A stretch of DNA of 43,842 nt from contig CAYTEZ010000003.1 in assembly GCA_964437025.1 (NCBI GenBank), positions 1 to 43,842 on the forward strand, read 5' to 3'. Shown piece after piece: positions 1,659 through 33,226 of the stretch (position 1 is its first letter; every line of letters begins with the position of its first letter). This stretch comes from an uncultured Gammaproteobacteria bacterium (lineage in GTDB: Bacteria; Patescibacteriota; Patescibacteriia; Patescibacteriales; UBA12465). The notes beneath the pieces were generated by a model that made no database searches, had not been told where the DNA came from, and saw only the letters and a list, made by a program, of their open reading frames with translations. The position numbers and the translations under genes are program-made.

Positions 1659-3977
1659 ATGGACAAAACTACAAAAAGAATTTTAATTGGCTTACTTATT
1701 TTCTTAGTACTATTTTTTGTAGTTATTTTTGTTGTCTTTAGTCGAAAAAGTGAAACTAATAATCAGGCGCAAGAAGAAAATAAAATTGGTCAATTGGAAG
1801 AGAATAAAAACGCTGATATTGAAGGTCTGATAGACTCCTCTCGTTTGATCGGAGGATTACCAACTAGTGATACTAAAATTGGTGTAAGTTTTGCTGGTGA
1901 AAGTAGCAATGAATTAATTGAATATATTTCCTTTTTAGATTTTTATGAAAAAATAAATGATAACTTATCTTTAAATAATTCTGATTATCAATTACCAATT
2001 AATGTTAAAACAGATGTGGTTAATTATTATGATGTTTCTCGTAAAATTAATTTAGATAATTCTCTAAATTCTTTAAACAAGAACGGTTTTGCTGTAATTG
2101 ATAATCCCTTTTCTTCTAACAATTTTTATAACATCTACGACGAATTAAATAATAAAGAAATTCCCTTATTAATTAGTTCTGATTTTTTAATCTACTATTA
2201 TCAACAAACTTTAAAGAGCGTTTTTAAAGATGTTGAAGAAAATGTTTTTTATTCTAACCTGTGGGAGATCAATAGATTCTTATATGAGACAGCTAAAACT
2301 AGATATGAAAGTAGTTTAAGAGAGAAAGGGCAGGTTAACGATAGAGTTTTAGAAGCCCAAAGGTTGGCCGCAGCTTATTTTGCTACCTCGTTGGAGCTTT
2401 TAGAGCCAGAGACTGCTCAAATTGATAAGAGTAATAATATTTCCAATAAAGCGATGTTTACACCCTATGAGGCTGAAAATTATGCTTTTTCTTTACCTGA
2501 TTATTTAAAAGTTGATGTAGAGAAAGAAGTACAGTTAATAAAAACCATGAACCAATCAGCTAAGTCTCCGGTGCTTTTATACCAAAGAGATTATCGATCT
2601 TTTTTAGTGCCAGAGGAATACAAAGGTAATGCTAAATTAAATAATTTTTATTTAAGTACTAAATGGTTATCGTCAGAATTTCCTCTATACTATCAAGATA
2701 AAAATGACTGCCCTGATTGTGAACTAGATTTTGATGATTGGCGAGTTAGCATGATCACTTCTTCTTTTATTGCTAAAGATATTTTTGATAGTTATGAATT
2801 AAAAAATAAATGGGCTCGTATTTATAAAACGCTAGCTTTCTTTAAAGGTCTTCGCGGAGAGTTAACTTATGTTCATTATCGTGATGCTTTAAAAAATACT
2901 TTTGGTGAAGATTATAAAATTGAAGAAATATTTTCTGATAGTAATTCAGAATCAGTTAATAATTTAAAAAAGTTTAGAGAAAAAATTTTAGAATATAATT
3001 TTTTAGGTATCGAAGGCTCTTTTTCACGCAGTGATATCAAAGAAAGAAAAAATATTGGTGTTCGAATGTTAACTGATTGGTATTGGCCTAATGATTATAT
3101 TTTGCAAGAACTTTCTTCCCCTAATGTTTCTCTATATAATGGTGATAAAATATCAAAAAATAATGTAACAGCTTGTGCTGATAAAAATAGCGGAAAAACA
3201 GTGCGTTGTAACGGTTTTTCTTTAGATATTGTAGCTTTAGTTAATGAAAGAAGTTTGTTAGGAAATGCTTACTATTCAGAAAATTCTAATTATCAAGGAT
3301 ATAATGAAGCTTTGTATTTTCTTACCGCTCAGGTTAATAAGTTTGAAAAAATCTGGCACTATAATAATTATTGGAAGACTTTAAATTTAATTAAAGAGTA
3401 TTTACAATCTGATAAAAATAAACAACCAGCTTTTTCTAGAAGCTCTGATTGGAAAACCAAAGAATTAAATACAGCTGTCGGAGCTTGGGTAAATTTGCAA
3501 TTGCCATTAGAGAAGTTAAGTATTTATAAAAAGAATCAAAGTTATTCTTTGGCTACTGGAGATAAAGAAGTATTTGATTATAACTATATTGAACCTAATT
3601 TAAATTTAATTAACGAACAAATTTCTAATATTAACATGATAACTAAAATGTTTGATTTGTTAAAAATTAGTGAGGAGTTGCGTAGCACTAAAATCGGGTT
3701 AGAGGAAATGAAAAGTAACCTGAGTCGAATTAAGGGAATTATGGTTAAAGAGCTTAATTCAGAAAAACTCAACGAAGAAGACCTCCAATTCATTTCTCTT
3801 CTAGCTTTGGAATTTAAATCCGAGGCAGACTCAAGCAAGATATTAAGAGTCAATTCTGACTCTGGTAAGGCTTTAAATTATGATTTGTCTAAGTCTAAAT
3901 TACTGATAACAGTAAATCAAATTAATGGAATAAAGACTTTTGCCGTTTCCCCAGTCTTTAGCTATAGGGAATATTAA
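1659..3977 (+). CDS. Large N-terminally anchored hypothetical protein (772 aa), possibly DUF3160-like
   Basis: Single N-terminal TM helix then a long N/Y/S-rich soluble region. Size and architecture recall DUF3160; not verified by search. Confidence 0.6.
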   Translation: MDKTTKRILIGLLIFLVLFFVVIFVVFSRKSETNNQAQEENKIGQLEENKNADIEGLIDSSRLIGGLPTSDTKIGVSFAGESSNELIEYISFLDFYEKINDNLSLNNSDYQLPINVKTDVVNYYDVSRKINLDNSLNSLNKNGFAVIDNPFSSNNFYNIYDELNNKEIPLLISSDFLIYYYQQTLKSVFKDVEENVFYSNLWEINRFLYETAKTRYESSLREKGQVNDRVLEAQRLAAAYFATSLELLEPETAQIDKSNNISNKAMFTPYEAENYAFSLPDYLKVDVEKEVQLIKTMNQSAKSPVLLYQRDYRSFLVPEEYKGNAKLNNFYLSTKWLSSEFPLYYQDKNDCPDCELDFDDWRVSMITSSFIAKDIFDSYELKNKWARIYKTLAFFKGLRGELTYVHYRDALKNTFGEDYKIEEIFSDSNSESVNNLKKFREKILEYNFLGIEGSFSRSDIKERKNIGVRMLTDWYWPNDYILQELSSPNVSLYNGDKISKNNVTACADKNSGKTVRCNGFSLDIVALVNERSLLGNAYYSENSNYQGYNEALYFLTAQVNKFEKIWHYNNYWKTLNLIKEYLQSDKNKQPAFSRSSDWKTKELNTAVGAWVNLQLPLEKLSIYKKNQSYSLATGDKEVFDYNYIEPNLNLINEQISNINMITKMFDLLKISEELRSTKIGLEEMKSNLSRIKGIMVKELNSEKLNEEDLQFISLLALEFKSEADSSKILRVNSDSGKALNYDLSKSKLLITVNQINGIKTFAVSPVFSYREY

Positions 3978-4009: not shown

Positions 4010-4053
4010 AAGTATAAAAAATAGCTGTGGAAAAGGTCGGGATAAGTTGTGGA

Positions 4054-4082
4054 TTGACAATTTTAATTTAATATTATAATAT
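4054..4082 (+). promoter_or_regulatory. rpoBC promoter candidate
   Basis: TTGACA (4054-4059), 17 nt, TAATAT (4077-4082). A TATAAT at 4075-4080 would give a 15-nt spacer. Confidence 0.6.
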
Positions 4083-4146
4083 AAGAGCATAAAACTTTAG
4101 TCTTAATATAAATAAAAGTGTATATTTATATTAGATAAACTCTAAA

Positions 4147-4204
4147 CAGCTAAACAACCAAACCTGAAAGGTATTGGAGTCTTTTTGTTGCTGGATTTTT
4201 GTTT
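4147..4204 (+). promoter_or_regulatory. Terminator-like nested hairpin plus U-tract in the rpoB leader (possible attenuator)
   Basis: Nested pairings CAGC/GCTG (4147-4150 with 4190-4193), AACAA/TTGTT, CCAA/TTGG and ACC/GGT with loop TGAAA, followed by GATTTTTGTTT. Confidence 0.4.
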
Positions 4205-4257
4205 ATTCATTAATAAATTAATTCATATAAAACAAGTTGTCTTGTTTTCACAACTTT

Positions 4258-7200
4258 ATGCCTAACGATTTTAAAACTAATATCAAAAATACTGAGCGTC
4301 GTTACTTCACCAACTTCCGTGAAGCAATGCCGATACCAGATTTAATAGAATTGCAAAAAGATTCTTATAAATGGTTTTTAGAAGAAGGTCTAGCGGAATT
4401 ATTTGATGAAATTTCCCCAATAGTTGATTTTAATAACAGAGAGCTTGAGCTTAGCTTGGGTGATTATTATTTGGATAAACCTAAATTTAATGAAATTGAA
4501 AGCCGTGAGAAAAATATTACTTACGAAGCTCCTCTTAGAATTAAAGCTATTTTAAAAAACAAAAGAACTGCTCAAGAAATAGCGCAAGAAGTTTATTTAG
4601 GAGATTTTCCTTTAATGACTGATAATGGAACCTTTATCATTAATGGTATTGAAAGAGTTGTTGTTTCTCAGTTAATTAGAAGTGCTGGTGTAATGTTTAC
4701 TGCTGAATATATCAGAGGAAAAAAATATTATGGAGCTAAAATTATCCCAAATCGTGGTGCTTGGTTAGAAATTGAAACTGATGTTAATAAAGTTATTTGG
4801 GTTAGAATTGATAGAAAAAGAAAGGTAGCAGTTACTTCACTGCTTAGAGCTTTTGGTTACGAAACTGATGAAGAATTAAAGAAATTATTTAAAGATGTTG
4901 ATTTAGTTAAGAGTGAAGACGAACCTACTTATATTGAAGCTACTATCAAAAAAGATTTAGCTAAAAACCAAATTGATGGATTACAAGAAGTATATCGTCG
5001 TATTCGTCCAGGAGATTTAGCTGACGACAAAAACGTAAAACAAATGATTGAAAACATGTTCTTCCGTTTTGATCGTTATGATTTTGGTAGAGTTGGAAGA
5101 TATAAATTAAATCGTCGTTTTGATGAAGAATTACCTATTAACAAAGAAACTAGAATTTTACGTAAGGAAGATCTACTTAACATTGTTAAAGAAGTTATTA
5201 GATTAAATATTACCAAAGAACCAGAAGATGATATTGATCATCTAGGTAATCGTCGTATCAGGGCTATTGGTGGTTTAGTACAGAATCGTTTACGTGTTGG
5301 TTTAGCTCGTATGGAAAGAATTATTAAGGATAAAATGAGTATTGCTGATATTAATACTATTTCCCCAAACAAATTAATCAATGCTCGTCCGGTTATAGCA
5401 ATTATTAGAGAATTCTTTATGTCTTCTCAACTTTCTCAATTCATGGATCAAACTAATCCTCTAGCTGAATTAGAACACAAACGAAGATTATCAGCTATGG
5501 GTCCCGGAGGTTTGACTAGAGAAAGAGCTGGGTTTGATGTTCGTGATGTACACACTACTCACTATGGACGCATTTGTCCGATTGCTACTCCTGAAGGTCC
5601 AAACATTGGTTTGGTTGGTCACTTAGCTTCTTACGCTCATTTGAACCATTACGGATTTTTAGAAGCTCCTTATAGAAAAGTAATTAAAGATAAAAAAGGA
5701 TCAAAGGTTACTAGCGAGATTGTTTATCTTGATGCCTTTGAAGAAGAAAAATATGTTATTGCCGATGCTACTATTCCAGTAGATAACAACGGTTCTTTTA
5801 TGGTAGATAAATATCCAGCTCGTCGTGGTGGAAAACCGGAAACCATTGAAGTTTCAGAGATTGATTTTGTTGGTGTAGCTCCTAACCAAATTATTTCTAT
5901 TGCCACCTCACTTATTCCATTTATGGAACACAATGATGGACAGAGATCACTTATGGGAACAAACATGCAACGTCAGGCTGTGCCTTTAGTTAAGACGGAA
6001 GCACCGATTGTTGGAACTGGTATTGAAGCTATCGCCGCTCGTGATTCAGGTCATATTATTATTGCCCCAGAAGATGGAGAAATTACTAAAGTTGACGCTT
6101 TAAATTTAGAGTTTACTAACACTAAAGGAAAAGTAAAAAAATATACTTTAACTAAATTTTTACGTTCTAACTTCTTAACTTGTATTAACCAAAAACCGAT
6201 TGTTAATGTAGGTGATAAAGTTAAAAAAGGACAAGCTTTAACTGACGGTCCAGCTATTTCTAATGGTGAATTAGCTTTAGGAAAAAATGTTTTAGTAGCC
6301 TTTATGACTTGGGAAGGATATAACTATGAAGATGCGGTTATTATTTCTGAAAGATTAGTCAAAGAGGATGTTTATTCTTCTATCCAAATTGAAAATTATA
6401 CTATTGATGTTCGTGATACAAAACTAGGTCCTGAAGTAATTACTAATGATATTCCAAATATCTCAGAAGAGAAATTAAAGAACTTAGATGAAGATGGAAT
6501 TATTCGTATTGGAGCTGAGGTTTCTAGTGGTGATATTCTAGTTGGAAAAATTACTCCAAAAGGTGAAACTAAATTAAGTGCTGAAGAAAGATTACTTCGA
6601 GCTATCTTTGGTGACAAAGCTAAGGATGTTCGTGATTCTTCTTTATACTTAGAACACGGAGAACAAGGTAAGGTTATTGATATTAAAATTTTCTCACGTG
6701 AAGATGGTGATAAATTAGAAGCTGGTGTTTTGAAATCAGTTCAGATTTCTATTGCTAACTTAAGAAAGATTCAAGTTGGTGATAAGATGTCAGGTCGTCA
6801 TGGTAATAAAGGTGTTATTTCTAAAGTTGTTCCAATTGAAGATATGCCATATATGGAAGATGGAACTCCAATTGATATTATTTTATCTCCTTTGGGTATT
6901 ATTTCTCGTATGAACTTTGGTCAGTTACTTGAAACTCATATGGGTCTAGCTGCTCAAAAATTAGGTTATAAGGTAGCTACCCCTCCTTTAAATGGTATTA
7001 CTGAAGATCAAATTAGAGAAGAATTGAAAAAGGCTGGTTATCCAGAAGATGGAAAAGTTTCTTTATACAATGGAAAGACTGGAGAAAAATATGAAAATAG
7101 AATTACTGTTGGTTATAAATATGTCTTGAAATTAAACCATATGGTTGAAGACAAGATTCACCAAAGATCCATTGGTCCATACTCACTTATTACTCAACAA

Positions 7201-26705: not shown

Positions 26706-26778
26706 GGGCATATAGCTCAGCGGTTAGAGCACCGCCCTTATAAGGCGGGGGTCGACGGTTCAAATCCATCTATGCCCA
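26706..26778 (+). tRNA. tRNA-Ile(UAU), no encoded CCA
   Basis: Acceptor GGGCATA/TATGCCC, D arm GCTC..GAGC, anticodon stem CCGCC/GGCGG with loop CTTATAA (anticodon TAT), T arm GACGG-TTCAAAT-CCATC (one C-A mismatch), discriminator A. Confidence 0.85.
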
Positions 26779-26782
26779 CACT

Positions 26783-27211: not shown

Positions 27212-27217
27212 ACACTT

Positions 27218-27436
27218 ATGGAAGTTGTTTTAGAACTTATCGGCTTTAAAGGCGATGGAGTTATTTTACGTGATTTAAGTGGCCGTGATATTTTATGGCC
27301 CAAAGATTCTTTCCCAGAAAGTATTCAAGTGGGAGAAAGGGTTAGTTTTTTGTTAGGCGCAAAAGAACTTAATGATTTAAAAAGACAACAAGTGGCCAAA
27401 GATGTTTTAAACGAACTTATAAATAGTGATAATTAA
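27218..27436 (+). CDS. Small hypothetical protein (DUF3006-like)
   Basis: 72 aa with the pattern GDGVILRDLSGRDILWPKDSFPESIQVGERVSF typical of DUF3006. Tightly spaced after hsp20. Confidence 0.55.
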   Translation: MEVVLELIGFKGDGVILRDLSGRDILWPKDSFPESIQVGERVSFLLGAKELNDLKRQQVAKDVLNELINSDN

Positions 27437-27439
27437 AAT

Positions 27440-29314: not shown

Positions 29315-29327
29315 AAAAAGAGTAAAT

Positions 29328-29468
29328 AAAAAAACCGACTTAAACGGGATAGGCAAGAAAATCTCTTTTAGGAGCTTTAAAGCCTTAGCCTTAGAAACCC
29401 TGAAAGAAAATCCCATGCTTGTCGTGCCTGGCCCGTTTAAATCGGTTTTTATTTTTTCAAAAGACAAC
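29328..29468 (-). ncRNA. Candidate structured ncRNA-B (~140 nt long hairpin), family unknown
   Basis: Promoter at 29474-29502 (minus). A 17-bp closing helix (29332-29348 with 29432-29448) encloses about 83 nt, followed by a second helix AGGCA/TGCCT. A-run and T-run flank it. It could instead be an oversized bidirectional terminator. Confidence 0.4.
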
Positions 29469-29473
29469 TTAAT

Positions 29474-29502
29474 ATTCTATCACACAAACAAAAAAAAGTC
29501 AA
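29474..29502 (-). promoter_or_regulatory. Extended -10 promoter on the minus strand (drives ncRNA-B)
   Basis: Minus strand reads TTGACT (29502-29497), 17 nt ending in TGa, TAGAAT (29479-29474). Confidence 0.6.
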
Positions 29503-29530
29503 TACCTAAAGGTGACTTCTTTTTTTTGAC

Positions 29531-29557
29531 AAAAACCCCTATAAATAGGGGGTTTTC
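29531..29557. terminator. tsaD terminator hairpin (C-tract/G-tract palindrome)
   Basis: AAAAACCCCTATAAATAGGGGGTTTTC; on the minus strand the stem is followed by TTTTTG. Confidence 0.7.
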
Positions 29558-29563
29558 TTGACT

Positions 29564-30745: not shown

Positions 30746-30817
30746 GGCCCCTTCGTCTAGTGGTTAGGACACCAGGTTTTCATCCTGACAACAGGGGTTC
30801 GATTCCCCTAGGGGTCA
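30746..30817 (+). tRNA. tRNA-Glu(UUC), no encoded CCA
   Basis: Acceptor GGCCCCT/AGGGGTC, D arm GTCT..GGAC, anticodon loop TTTTCAT (anticodon TTC), T arm AGGGG-TTCGATT-CCCCT. Confidence 0.9.
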
Positions 30818-30822
30818 CACTG

Positions 30823-30901: not shown

Positions 30902-31498
30902 ATGTTTGGTGAAAATTTTAAATCAATGTTGGGGATTAAAAATAATTCTCACGAAGAAGAACTACCTAAAGGGTCACAACAGAATCCTTACTCCCAAGCA
31001 GAATTCAATTCTCTAGCAAAAGAAAGAATGAGAAAAGAACAATTAGTGCATTTTGATGGTTATGTTAATGATACTACTAGTCCTAAAAATCCCAATGTTA
31101 GATATCTAAACTTTGTGGAAAAGGACAGCAATTTTTATACCGTCAATTTATCTCCTTCACAGAAAAGAACTTATACTCGTTTGAATACAATAAAAAATGA
31201 AGATAATTCTTTTTCGAATAATGTGTCCGTTCTGGTAAAGGATGGTGGCATAATGAAAAAAATGACAATTAGAATAGGGTATGAGTTACCATTGTCAATC
31301 AGAAAAGAAATAGTTGATACTGTTTATAGAAAAATAAATAGTGAAGATTTTGCTTCTAATCGAACCAAATGGAGTGAGGAAGCAAAGAAAATCAAAGAAG
31401 AAGAATGTCGCAAAGATCTTCTTTGGACAGTTGCTGGAATTGTGCGGAAAAATATTGAAGACAGTGAAGATGATTCGCTGGACATTCAAATACTATAA
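30902..31498 (+). CDS. Orphan hypothetical protein (198 aa)
   Basis: Clean ORF with coding-like composition and its own terminator. I recognise no motif. Confidence 0.6.
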   Translation: MFGENFKSMLGIKNNSHEEELPKGSQQNPYSQAEFNSLAKERMRKEQLVHFDGYVNDTTSPKNPNVRYLNFVEKDSNFYTVNLSPSQKRTYTRLNTIKNEDNSFSNNVSVLVKDGGIMKKMTIRIGYELPLSIRKEIVDTVYRKINSEDFASNRTKWSEEAKKIKEEECRKDLLWTVAGIVRKNIEDSEDDSLDIQIL

Positions 31499-31506
31499 TA
31501 AGTCTA

Positions 31507-31537
31507 AGAAGTCGTTAAATAACGGCTTCTTTTTTTA
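31507..31537 (+). terminator. Intrinsic terminator of the 198-aa gene
   Basis: AGAAGTCGTT-AAAT-AACGGCTTCT followed by TTTTTTT. Confidence 0.8.
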
Positions 31538-31540
31538 TAT

Positions 31541-31747
31541 AAAAAAATGGAGCTAGGTCGTGGTCTAGCTCCAGGTATTAATTGTGCCAATTTTTAAATC
31601 TAGAGCCGTTTTTAGATTTAAGGATATTGGCTAGATTATTGAATCCTCCTTTCGGTTAGTTTTTTCAAGGCGGCTGGAATACCACGGGCACCATTTTCTT
31701 CCTAGATAGCAGAAGTTTTATTCGGCGCGCGTACACGTAACTTATAC
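31541..31747 (-). ncRNA. Candidate ncRNA-C (~205 nt, GC-enriched) or small-peptide mRNA, family unknown
   Basis: Perfect promoter at 31752-31780 (minus). Terminator GGAGCTAG-loop-CTAGCTCC (31572-31549) plus a U-run only on the minus strand. No ORF of 60 aa or more. Internal long-range complementarity. Confidence 0.55.
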
Positions 31748-31751
31748 TTAT

Positions 31752-31780
31752 ATTATAACTCTGTTTTTTTTGATTGTCAA
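31752..31780 (-). promoter_or_regulatory. Perfect consensus sigma70 promoter with no protein gene downstream
   Basis: Minus strand reads TTGACA (31780-31775), 17 nt, TATAAT (31757-31752). Starts 3 nt after the ychF stop codon. Confidence 0.75.
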
Positions 31781-31782
31781 AA

Positions 31783-32844
31783 TTATTTTCCAATTAAAAA
31801 ATTACAGATATCACCATCACGTACAACATAATCTTTTCCTTCAGTTCTAAGTAATCCTAACTCTTTAGCTTTAACTTCTGATCCAACTTCAATAAACTTT
31901 TCCCAGTTAATAACCTCGGCTCTAATAAAGCCTTTTTCAAAATCAGTATGAATTTCTCCGGCGGCTTGTGGGGCTTTGCTGCCTTTTTTTATAGTCCAAG
32001 CTCGAGTTTCATCTTTTCCGGTAGTGAAGAAAGTTTCTAGACCTAGTAGTTTGTATGAGGAATAAATTAATTTGTCTAAACCGCTTTTATCAATGCCTAA
32101 TTCCTGTAGATATTCTTGTTGTTCTTCTTCAGGTAGTTTAGAAATTTCTTCTTCCATCTTTACATTGATTCTCACAATTTCACCATCCCAATTAAAATCA
32201 GTGCTAGCACTGGTGTCATCTGAATTTAAGGCATAAATGATTGGTTTAATTGTTAAAAGACTTAAGCTCTTAACAAAAGCTTGATCTTCGTCTTTTACAA
32301 CAAATTTTCTAGCACCTTGCCCACTTTCTAATAGTTTTAATATTTCTTCTAAAATTTCTTTTTGTTTGATAGCTTCTTTGGAATTACTCTTGGCTTCTTT
32401 GATAACTTTCTCTAATCTTTTTTCAACTGTTTTTAAATCAGCAAAAATTAATTCCATGTTAATTGTTTCTTGATCACTCTTGGGATCAACTTGACCCTCA
32501 ACGTGAATAACATTTTCATCTTTAAAATCTCGAATTACTTCGCAGATAGCATCACATTCTCTAATGTGTGATAAAAATTGGTTACCCAAACCTTCACCTT
32601 TGTGAGCGCCTTTAACTAATCCGGCAATATCGGTAAATTCAATAAAGGCCGGAATAATTTTAGCTGGTTGTGATATAGCTGCGATTTTATCTAAACGAGA
32701 ATCAGGAACTTTAACTACTCCAACATTGGGATCAATAGTACAAAAAGGGTAGTTAGCGGCCTCTACTTGTTTATTTGTTAGAACATTAAAAAGAGTTGAT
32801 TTTCCAACATTAGGTAAACCGACAATTCCAATTGATAATGACAT
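31783..32844 (-). CDS. ychF: Ribosome-binding ATPase YchF
   Basis: IGIVGLPNVGKSTLFN P-loop, NYPFCTIDPN, and C-terminal TGS-like VRDGDICNF. Confidence 0.95.
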   Translation of the reverse strand: MSLSIGIVGLPNVGKSTLFNVLTNKQVEAANYPFCTIDPNVGVVKVPDSRLDKIAAISQPAKIIPAFIEFTDIAGLVKGAHKGEGLGNQFLSHIRECDAICEVIRDFKDENVIHVEGQVDPKSDQETINMELIFADLKTVEKRLEKVIKEAKSNSKEAIKQKEILEEILKLLESGQGARKFVVKDEDQAFVKSLSLLTIKPIIYALNSDDTSASTDFNWDGEIVRINVKMEEEISKLPEEEQQEYLQELGIDKSGLDKLIYSSYKLLGLETFFTTGKDETRAWTIKKGSKAPQAAGEIHTDFEKGFIRAEVINWEKFIEVGSEVKAKELGLLRTEGKDYVVRDGDICNFLIGK

Positions 32845-32914: not shown

Positions 32915-32944
32915 TTGACACCCTATGGGGGTATTTGATATAAT
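32915..32944 (+). promoter_or_regulatory. Promoter with an embedded CsoR-type operator
   Basis: TTGACA (32915-32920), 18-nt spacer, TGaTATAAT (32936-32944). The spacer holds the C-tract/G-tract inverted repeat ACACCCTATGGGGGTAT (32918-32934). Confidence 0.7.
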
Positions 32945-32983: not shown

Positions 32984-33226
32984 ATGCGCAGTACAGATCA
33001 GAGAATAAATATTATAATTGGGCAGTTAGAGGGTGTAAAAAAGATGCTTCGACAAAAAGATAGTAGTTGTTTTGATTCTGTAGTACAATTAAAAGCTATT
33101 AAGTCGAGCATTTCTTCTTTAATGGATAAAGTATTAGAAGAAGAATTTAACACTTGTTTTTTAAAGGAGTGTCCAAGTAATAGAGAGCATATTAAAAAAA
33201 TATTTTCAGAAGTTTTAAAAAAATAA
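32984..33226 (+). CDS. CsoR/RcnR/CstR-family (DUF156) transcriptional repressor
   Basis: 80 aa. RINIIIGQLEGVKKML aligns with the family motif RLKRIEGQVRGI. Cys29 and Cys58 sit at the conserved +29 spacing. Confidence 0.8.
   Translation: MRSTDQRINIIIGQLEGVKKMLRQKDSSCFDSVVQLKAIKSSISSLMDKVLEEEFNTCFLKECPSNREHIKKIFSEVLKK

Follow-up and report, generated by a model that had tools for sequence, protein, structure and literature searches.

What does a consensus promoter do directly behind a stop codon, facing a convergent gene and with no open reading frame (ORF) of at least 60 aa ahead of it? The question is raised by the 240 nt that follow ychF on contig CAYTEZ010000003.1 (assembly GCA_964437025.1), a Patescibacteria (Candidate Phyla Radiation, CPR) sequence whose 43,842 nt form the window analysed here. 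A first-pass annotation, read from the letters, had singled out positions 31541-31780 of the minus strand as a discrete orphan unit for a structured non-coding RNA (ncRNA), with a possible micro-ORF inside. Here, by comparing homologous loci, we find that promoter, RNA core and terminator are kept together among close relatives, and we propose that the interval is a genuine, independently transcribed structured small RNA (sRNA) gene that is limited to a narrow Patescibacteria clade. We put the probability of this reading, which draws on comparative sequence data, at roughly 0.6.

The elements of the unit, in the order in which RNA polymerase would meet them, are as follows.

31783 to 32844, minus strand: ychF, encoding a redox-regulated ATPase
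31780 to 31775, minus strand: -35 box TTGACA, starting at the third base past the ychF stop codon TAA (31785-31783)
31757 to 31752, minus strand: -10 box TATAAT, 17 nt from the -35 box, the two boxes matching the consensus at 12 of 12 positions
31541 to 31745, minus strand: predicted primary transcript of about 205 nt, its start placed about 7 nt past the -10 box and its 3' end in the U7 tract
31582 to 31748, minus strand: conserved core of about 165 nt with helices P1-P4, 40% GC, scoring 199 bits against R1, the calibrated covariance model of the RNA core
31541 to 31573, minus strand: intrinsic terminator, a 9-bp hairpin (31573-31548) followed by U7 (31547-31541)

The promoter, the lack of longer ORFs and the GC-rich terminator had all been read correctly at first sight. 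The longest ORF within 31541-31780 has 42 aa and a TTG start, and the terminator hairpin reads UGGAGCUAG-ACCACGAC-CUAGCUCCA, its strands UGGAGCUAG and CUAGCUCCA here counted as 9 rather than 8 bp. Read on the plus strand, the hairpin at 31573-31548 has no T-run, so that it is terminator-like on the minus strand alone. No terminator-like site was found on the minus strand between 31783 and 31574, and because ychF is thus without a terminator of its own, the same stretch would also form the ychF 3' untranslated region (UTR). The interval also stands out in composition, as first noted: the RNA has 40% GC, compared with 12-34% in the 16 other spacers of at least 60 nt and 32% in genes, and its 14-nt alternating purine-pyrimidine run is read directly as ACGTGTACGCGCGC (31738-31725). 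The next most GC-rich spacers, at 27212-27439 and 29315-29563, reach 33-34% GC, and the latter holds a bidirectional terminator (29532-29556).

Graded homologues of ychF and of ORF198, the convergent gene beyond the terminator, were looked up exactly and led to nine further loci (L081, L082, L083, L084, L089, which is cut inside the RNA, L092, L093, L095 and L096), with ychF 91-97% identical to that of the window. The search for homologous spacers downstream of ychF that had been suggested at the outset thereby found promoter, core and terminator kept in nine further loci, all with the order ychF, promoter, core, terminator, convergent ORF198/203, tRNA-Glu and tsaD. Over nine homologous loci (ychF 91-98% identical) the -35 box is TTGACA in seven and TTGACT in two, the -10 box TATAAT is unchanged in all nine, and the spacer is always 17 nt long while its letters differ; this retention of boxes and spacing across variable spacer letters points to selection on the promoter. 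The core has a mean pairwise identity of 0.886 (0.913 leaving out the P2 loop), set against a background of 0.706 for ychF third codon positions and 0.749 for ORF198 DNA. Homologues score 131-201 bits against R1. Features generally expected of sRNA genes are therefore found here, namely a conserved promoter of the element's own with a Rho-independent terminator, and conservation above the neutral background with compensatory changes among eight distinct sequences.

The homologues differ in their 3' parts. The transcript measures about 205 nt in the window and about 265-300 nt in relatives, seven of which (L081, L082, L083, L084, L092, L093 and L095) have some 60 nt more between core and terminator, an extra hairpin built of two copies of the palindrome AAGAUUAUAAUCUU flanking a purine-rich loop with AAGGAG. 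In L082 this hairpin lies at 3328-3384 and its palindrome AAGATTATAATCTT includes TATAAT. The window has the extra hairpin cleanly deleted and also lacks the longer compound terminator of some relatives, so both are dispensable. One allele is a mosaic. The core of L093 (3594-3764) is about 16% diverged from those of L095 (1788-1952) and L083 (3597-3761), which are identical to each other, with several of its changes being compensatory. The flanks of this allele agree with L095 in the terminator, the extra hairpin and the part of the promoter region that precedes the -10 box, and over ORF203 its DNA shares 99.7% identity with L083. This pattern suggests allelic replacement, the L093 core having been acquired by recombination with an allele from an unsampled lineage.

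Beyond this group the RNA was not detected. A search with R1 over 32 loci and the window gave no paralogue and no remote homologue, a 19.8-bit match in L011 being rejected because it is full of non-canonical pairs, and spacers 3' of ychF in the GTDB relatives L001-L009 (ychF 67-83% identical) gave no BLAST similarity. Scans with three conserved-motif patterns placed the RNA in one of 185,579 GTDB species representatives, with only L089 real and the other matches in genome contigs lying by chance inside coding regions. The same kind of scan found no real match in metagenome contigs (none, then one by chance) and nothing real in viral contigs, and BLAST against phage and plasmid collections returned no RNA match. 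On these searches the RNA is confined to one narrow, genus-level Patescibacteria clade near Candidatus Falkowbacteria, a placement of the window that comes from its ychF homologues.

The core has a predicted fold. RNAalifold and explicit pair counts on the eight distinct sequences give the following helices.

31684 to 31732, minus strand: 5' domain, P1 enclosing an A-rich internal loop and hairpin P1a
31732-31723 with 31693-31684, minus strand: P1, ACG.GCGCCG with UGGUGC.CGU, in which GGUGC pairs locally with GCGCC
31715-31711 with 31702-31698, minus strand: P1a, CUUCU with GGAAG around the loop GCUAUCUA, varying between U.G and U-A
31645 to 31673, minus strand: P2, CCGCCUU (31673-31667) with AAGGAGG (31651-31645), loop of 13-17 nt
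31586 to 31631, minus strand: 3' domain, P3 enclosing hairpin P4
31631-31627 with 31590-31586, minus strand: P3, GCCAA with UUGGC, invariant
31621-31613 with 31602-31594, minus strand: P4, UUAAAUCUA with UAGAUUUAA and the invariant-start loop AAAACGGCUC

The minus-strand transcript has a minimum free energy (MFE) of -50.9 kcal/mol (z = -3.05, one of 200 shuffles folding as well); the z-score is -4.82 for L093 and -2.04 for the antisense strand. In the alignment used (A6), 98.1% of 318 cells across 40 pairs are paired, against 32-52% in slid controls, and four pairs (one each in P1 and P4, two in the terminator hairpin) change on both sides, against zero or one in the controls. In P1, pair 20-66 is C-G in four sequences and U-A in four, the terminal pair is A-U, G.U or G-C, and two invariant G.U pairs are possible on the minus strand only; the whole segment from GCGCGCC to GGUGCCC is near-invariant across the homologues. 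Pair 140-157 of P4 is U-A in six sequences, C-G in one and U.G in one, and two pairs of the terminator hairpin covary in L092 and L084 (C-G to U-A, U-A to C-G). No part of the core varies more than the P2 loop, which differs in both length and sequence, and in L093 each strand of P2 gains one base (CCACGCCUU with AAGGUAGG), with single-sequence folding still predicting the helix. P3 is invariant and so is not probed by covariation. P1-P4 and the terminator helix recur in the single-sequence MFE folds of all eight homologues. Counting only changes inside contiguous helices, because lineage-correlated changes create spurious covariation, the comparative data support five predicted helices (P1, P1a, P2, P3 and P4) and the terminator hairpin.

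This fold also accounts for several motifs that had invited other interpretations. The complementarities listed in the first-pass annotation all exist, and the pairings proposed for them were wrong in part: the long-range helix AAUGGUGCC/GGCACAAUU (GUGCC/GGCAC) competes with P1 and P3, which take its place, shows no covariation and is broken in L084, and AGCCG/CGGCU loses two pairs in L093. The string AAGGAGG (31651-31645), described as a strong Shine-Dalgarno (SD)-like sequence among genes lacking one, is indeed the sole intergenic copy in the window, where only 1 of 33 genes (all ORFs of at least 80 aa) is preceded, within 20 nt of its start, by an SD-like tetramer. Given this count and the A/T-rich upstream regions, translation in this organism appears to begin without the help of SD sequences. 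Within the RNA, AAGGAGG is best read as the predicted 3' strand of P2. The idea of an SD mimic or ribosome decoy is weakened by L093, which has AAGGUAGG for AAGGAGG and keeps the pairing of P2.

The convergent gene is inherited together with the RNA. Both lie in a slot between ychF and a tRNA gene, for which two further features are needed.

30902 to 31498, plus strand: ORF198, convergent orphan gene, with its own terminator (31506-31531) back to back with the RNA terminator
30746 to 30818, plus strand: tRNA-Glu(UUC), whose 3' side bounds the slot holding the RNA and ORF198

RNA and ORF198 are jointly present and always adjacent in 9 of 9 complete loci. In L085-L088 and L094 (ychF 84-89% identical) and in L001, ychF, tRNA-Glu and tsaD are kept and both RNA and ORF198 are absent. 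This joint presence or absence marks the pair as lineage-specific cargo of a variable slot. Elsewhere the slot holds other things: a 90-100-aa protein with two CxxC pairs in L085 (3563-3900) and L094 (3563-4140), a terminator only in L087 and L088, a promoter and a membrane-like ORF in L001 (4060-4830) and, in L086 (3563-4800), an rve-family integrase beyond the tRNA. A search for att sites and direct repeats around the insert gave no sign of recent integration.

ORF198 is a real, fast-evolving orphan protein without a recognisable domain or fold match. Only seven close homologues were found among 5.8 billion proteins, and an exhaustive profile search added just three more distant ones. Pfam gave no match other than a sub-threshold VapB-antitoxin hit (E = 0.005), PADLOC none, PHROGs nothing meaningful, and a profile search of the PDB was negative. 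One of the distant homologues, P0130 (214 aa, E = 3e-27), probably shares a single 18,586-nt Logan contig with P0018, an 86%-identical ychF; if so, the association of RNA and ORF198 as a cassette would extend to a more distant lineage.

The absence of any known family, suspected by eye from the start, was borne out by model searches. Rfam 15 (4,227 covariance models) at gathering thresholds returned three tRNAs for the whole window and no match for the RNA. At relaxed settings (E<=10 / E<=1), the window RNA and the divergent L093 allele gave scattered matches of 11-27 bits, far below threshold; ZEB2_AS1_2, at 14-16 bits, was the only weak family to recur in both alleles. ARAGORN found no transfer-messenger RNA (tmRNA) in the window, and the RNA has neither a T-arm nor a conserved frame. 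For 6S RNA there is no end-to-end closing rod and no model match: the covariation-supported P1 is a local 5' hairpin closing nt 14-62, which leaves a series of domains in place of a rod. For the signal recognition particle (SRP) RNA there is no Rfam model match either, and the candidate CC-GAAA-GG element sits in the variable P2 loop with closing pairs CC, CA, UA or AA. Resemblances seen by eye, of GGUGCC...UGGUAUUCCAGCC to the SRP Alu loops and of GAAAGGAGG / ACGGCU to P4 of RNase P, have no model support and fall at positions that are not conserved. A riboswitch or cis leader was rejected with the next gene convergent and no conserved antiterminator present, and a type III toxin-antitoxin RNA of the ToxI kind with no tandem or direct repeats and, again, a convergent ORF198.

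Could the unit nevertheless encode a protein, or a familiar RNA in disguise? The coding idea concerns one short frame in particular.

31736 (GTG) or 31694 (ATG) to 31667-31665 (TGA), minus strand: micro-ORF proposed earlier, not a conserved frame

A small-protein gene, whether for MVPVVFQPP, the 23-aa GTG form or another short frame, has in its favour that this frame, ending in Pro-Pro-stop, does exist in the window, that a missing SD or start context is not decisive in an SD-less genome and that a gene caller reports a 51-aa ORF across the L084 core. Among the homologues, however, the frame shifts: past an invariant MVP the peptide continues as VVFQPP*, AWYSSRLVQ...*, TGIPAALL*, ASIPATPCINK* or a 37-aa tail, owing to 1- and 2-nt indels at CCCG--UGG, and the underlying nucleotides GUAUUCCAGCC stay unchanged whatever the frame. 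The ten core indels measure 1, 1, 1, 1, 1, 1, 2, 3, 3 and 6 nt, seven of them not multiples of three; not one synonymous change occurs in the 45 nt that encode ARRIKLLLSRKKMVP, against a divergence of about 30% at ychF third positions; the long form has no start codon in L093; and the 51-aa ORF is a product of deletions specific to L084. A codon-level check thus found neither a kept frame nor a synonymous-site pattern. We give a small protein next to no credence and regard the predicted RNA core as non-coding, the micro-ORF being for practical purposes excluded by the comparative data. We consider it very improbable, too, that a highly diverged housekeeping RNA (6S, SRP, RNase P or tmRNA) has been missed by the models in a CPR host. 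The strong consensus promoter, the raised GC content and a length within the range of 6S would suit such an RNA, but two alleles fail to match Rfam even at E<=10, ARAGORN is negative, the architecture of P1 and the placement of the would-be SRP GNRA loop do not fit, this locus has no such RNA in sister lineages whose ychF is 84-89% identical, and the conserved motifs occur in just one of the 185,579 species representatives.

The remaining rivals grant the RNA and dispute its independence. It might be a cis-acting 3' UTR of ychF, a stabilising or regulatory element plus terminator, with the promoter-like site weak or irrelevant. Transcripts of ychF must indeed run through the element, as no terminator intervenes, and relatives without it have a terminator directly after ychF. 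We nevertheless judge this unlikely: the fixed promoter spacing amid varying bases speaks for selection on the promoter, a 165-nt multi-helix core with invariant loops far exceeds the needs of a 3' UTR terminator, and gains and losses of the element go with those of ORF198 rather than of ychF. A sensor or leader RNA gating its own terminator, with read-through leading to antisense transcription of, or interference into, ORF198 in the manner of a riboswitch-controlled antisense RNA, would explain why only a terminator and a convergent gene lie beyond an aptamer-like, highly conserved core, why RNA and ORF198 are strictly co-inherited and why so strong a promoter faces ORF198. Against it, no antiterminator is conserved (the GGUAUU/AAUACC pairing of the window MFE fold is lost in L081 and L083, and the altered terminator stem of L092 and L084 has no matching change in UCUAGC), relatives insert a dispensable 60-nt hairpin between core and terminator, ORF198 has a terminator of its own back to back with that of the RNA, and no riboswitch family matches. 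This version appears distinctly unlikely.

We therefore return to the independently transcribed sRNA gene. Under this proposal a consensus sigma-70 promoter directly past the ychF stop would drive transcription and the intrinsic terminator would end the transcript before the convergent ORF198, with the same stretch doubling as the ychF 3' UTR. The RNA would fold into a 5' domain of P1 and P1a, the P2 hairpin with its variable loop, a 3' domain in which P3 encloses P4, and the terminator hairpin. It may then act in trans through long invariant single-stranded elements recognised by a partner, candidates being the A-rich internal loop, the GCUAUCUA loop, GUAUUCCAGCC, AAUCUAGCC and the P4 loop AAAACGGC. 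A protein partner, as in a ribonucleoprotein (RNP) or a sequestering RNA, is favoured over an antisense sRNA of the seed type because nearly the whole 165-nt core is constrained. An RNAduplex scan of the RNA against the 33 start regions of the window gave only uninterpretable long-loop duplexes. ORF198, strictly co-inherited with the RNA, is the obvious candidate for that partner.

Several points weigh against the proposal or parts of it. The eight distinct sequences come from a shallow clade, so covariation rests on few events; an all-against-all covariation scan is dominated by lineage-correlated changes and yields many spurious pairs; and P3 is constant throughout, as is most of P1 and P2. 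The AGGAU/AUCCU complementarity, which excludes P2, shows one both-sided change in L093 beside an A.C mismatch, and may be an alternative conformer to P2. Where transcription starts, and that it does so independently of ychF read-through, is inferred, and trans action with a protein partner is a guess. As for ORF198 in that role, its sequence changes rapidly (49-82% identity) and no RNA-binding domain can be recognised in it, its AlphaFold model is poor, with a confidence score (pLDDT) of 57, and Foldseek against the PDB gave no match at E<0.1.

How does such an RNA compare with known systems? In enterobacteria, sRNA genes of the DapZ and MicL type are embedded in the 3' end of a protein gene or lie behind it; they have a promoter of their own and use the terminator of that gene. 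The present unit resembles them in having a promoter at the end of the upstream gene, a terminator shared with the mRNA, a U-tract and an RNA that would exist both as primary transcript and as 3' UTR; it differs from these Hfq-dependent RNAs with a short conserved seed in the constraint on nearly its whole 165-nt core and in its CPR host. Like 6S and CsrB/RsmZ, which bind or sequester proteins, it is a stable, structured and non-coding RNA driven by a promoter of the abundant type, with conserved unpaired elements, AUCUAG occurring in two unpaired regions; unlike 6S it has no rod or central bubble, unlike CsrB/RsmZ no array of GGA hairpins, and it has no Rfam match. The B12 riboswitch/AspocR pair in Listeria is a riboswitch-controlled antisense RNA, and here too a structured RNA and its terminator face a convergent gene, but with no recognisable aptamer class, no conserved antiterminator and a convergent gene that has its own terminator. 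A further parallel is with the orphan structured motifs recovered by comparative-genomics screens in the style of Breaker and Weinberg, such as raiA and other motifs of about 200 nt (the approach is described in PMC8632094 and PMC2864571). The RNA shares with such motifs a GC-enriched spacer in an AT-rich genome, promoter, terminator and covarying helices, precisely the features on which these screens rely, and differs in matching no curated Rfam 15 motif and in being far narrower, restricted to one genus-level clade. It is in this sense a new family of an ordinary kind, a lineage-restricted bacterial orphan sRNA.

A few observations lie outside this family. In L004, another Patescibacteria locus (JAQVNC010000001.1, ychF 69% identical), the plus strand at 4050-4345 has TTGACA-17-TATATT directly past the ychF stop, followed by a GC-rich, ORF-poor stretch of about 260 nt, a terminator and a convergent gene. 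The stretch holds a tmRNA-tag-like string, GCUAAUGAUGAAAUUUUUGCUUAA (ANDEIFA*); as a tmRNA it was rejected, with no ARAGORN call and only an 11-bit partial match to beta_tmRNA, and it does not match R1, leaving it a candidate for a second, unrelated orphan RNA. Within the window, a second perfect promoter, TTGACA-18-TATAAT with a TG extension (32915-32944, plus strand), diverges from ychF upstream of genes for a CsoR-like repressor (32984-33226), a thioredoxin, a glutamate dehydrogenase and a thioredoxin reductase. ARAGORN also assigns 26706-26779 (plus strand), beside tRNA-Val(GAC), to a tRNA-Ile with anticodon UAU, which is uncommon for bacterial tRNA-Ile.

We are aware of no experimental characterisation of a regulatory RNA from Patescibacteria (CPR), and a literature search found no study of sRNAs in the group. 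The narrow distribution of the present RNA limits its scope; what makes it noteworthy is mainly the CPR host, and also the cassette-like association with ORF198 and the mosaic allele. That RNA and ORF198 form a new RNA-protein cassette (an RNP, an RNA-antidote pair or a conflict module) with cores exchanged by recombination and a binding architecture unique to CPR seems to us unlikely; if it were true, the invariant loops and a possible pseudoknot of the P4 loop would constitute a specific protein- or ligand-binding architecture. More generally, in AT-rich genomes without SD sequences, GC-enriched spacers lacking ORFs are good predictors of ncRNA, and little reliance can be placed on SD-like strings or short ORFs within such spacers. 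With its promoter, covarying core, terminator, ten homologous loci and the covariance model R1, the RNA is a cleanly delimited candidate that can be tested in metatranscriptomes.

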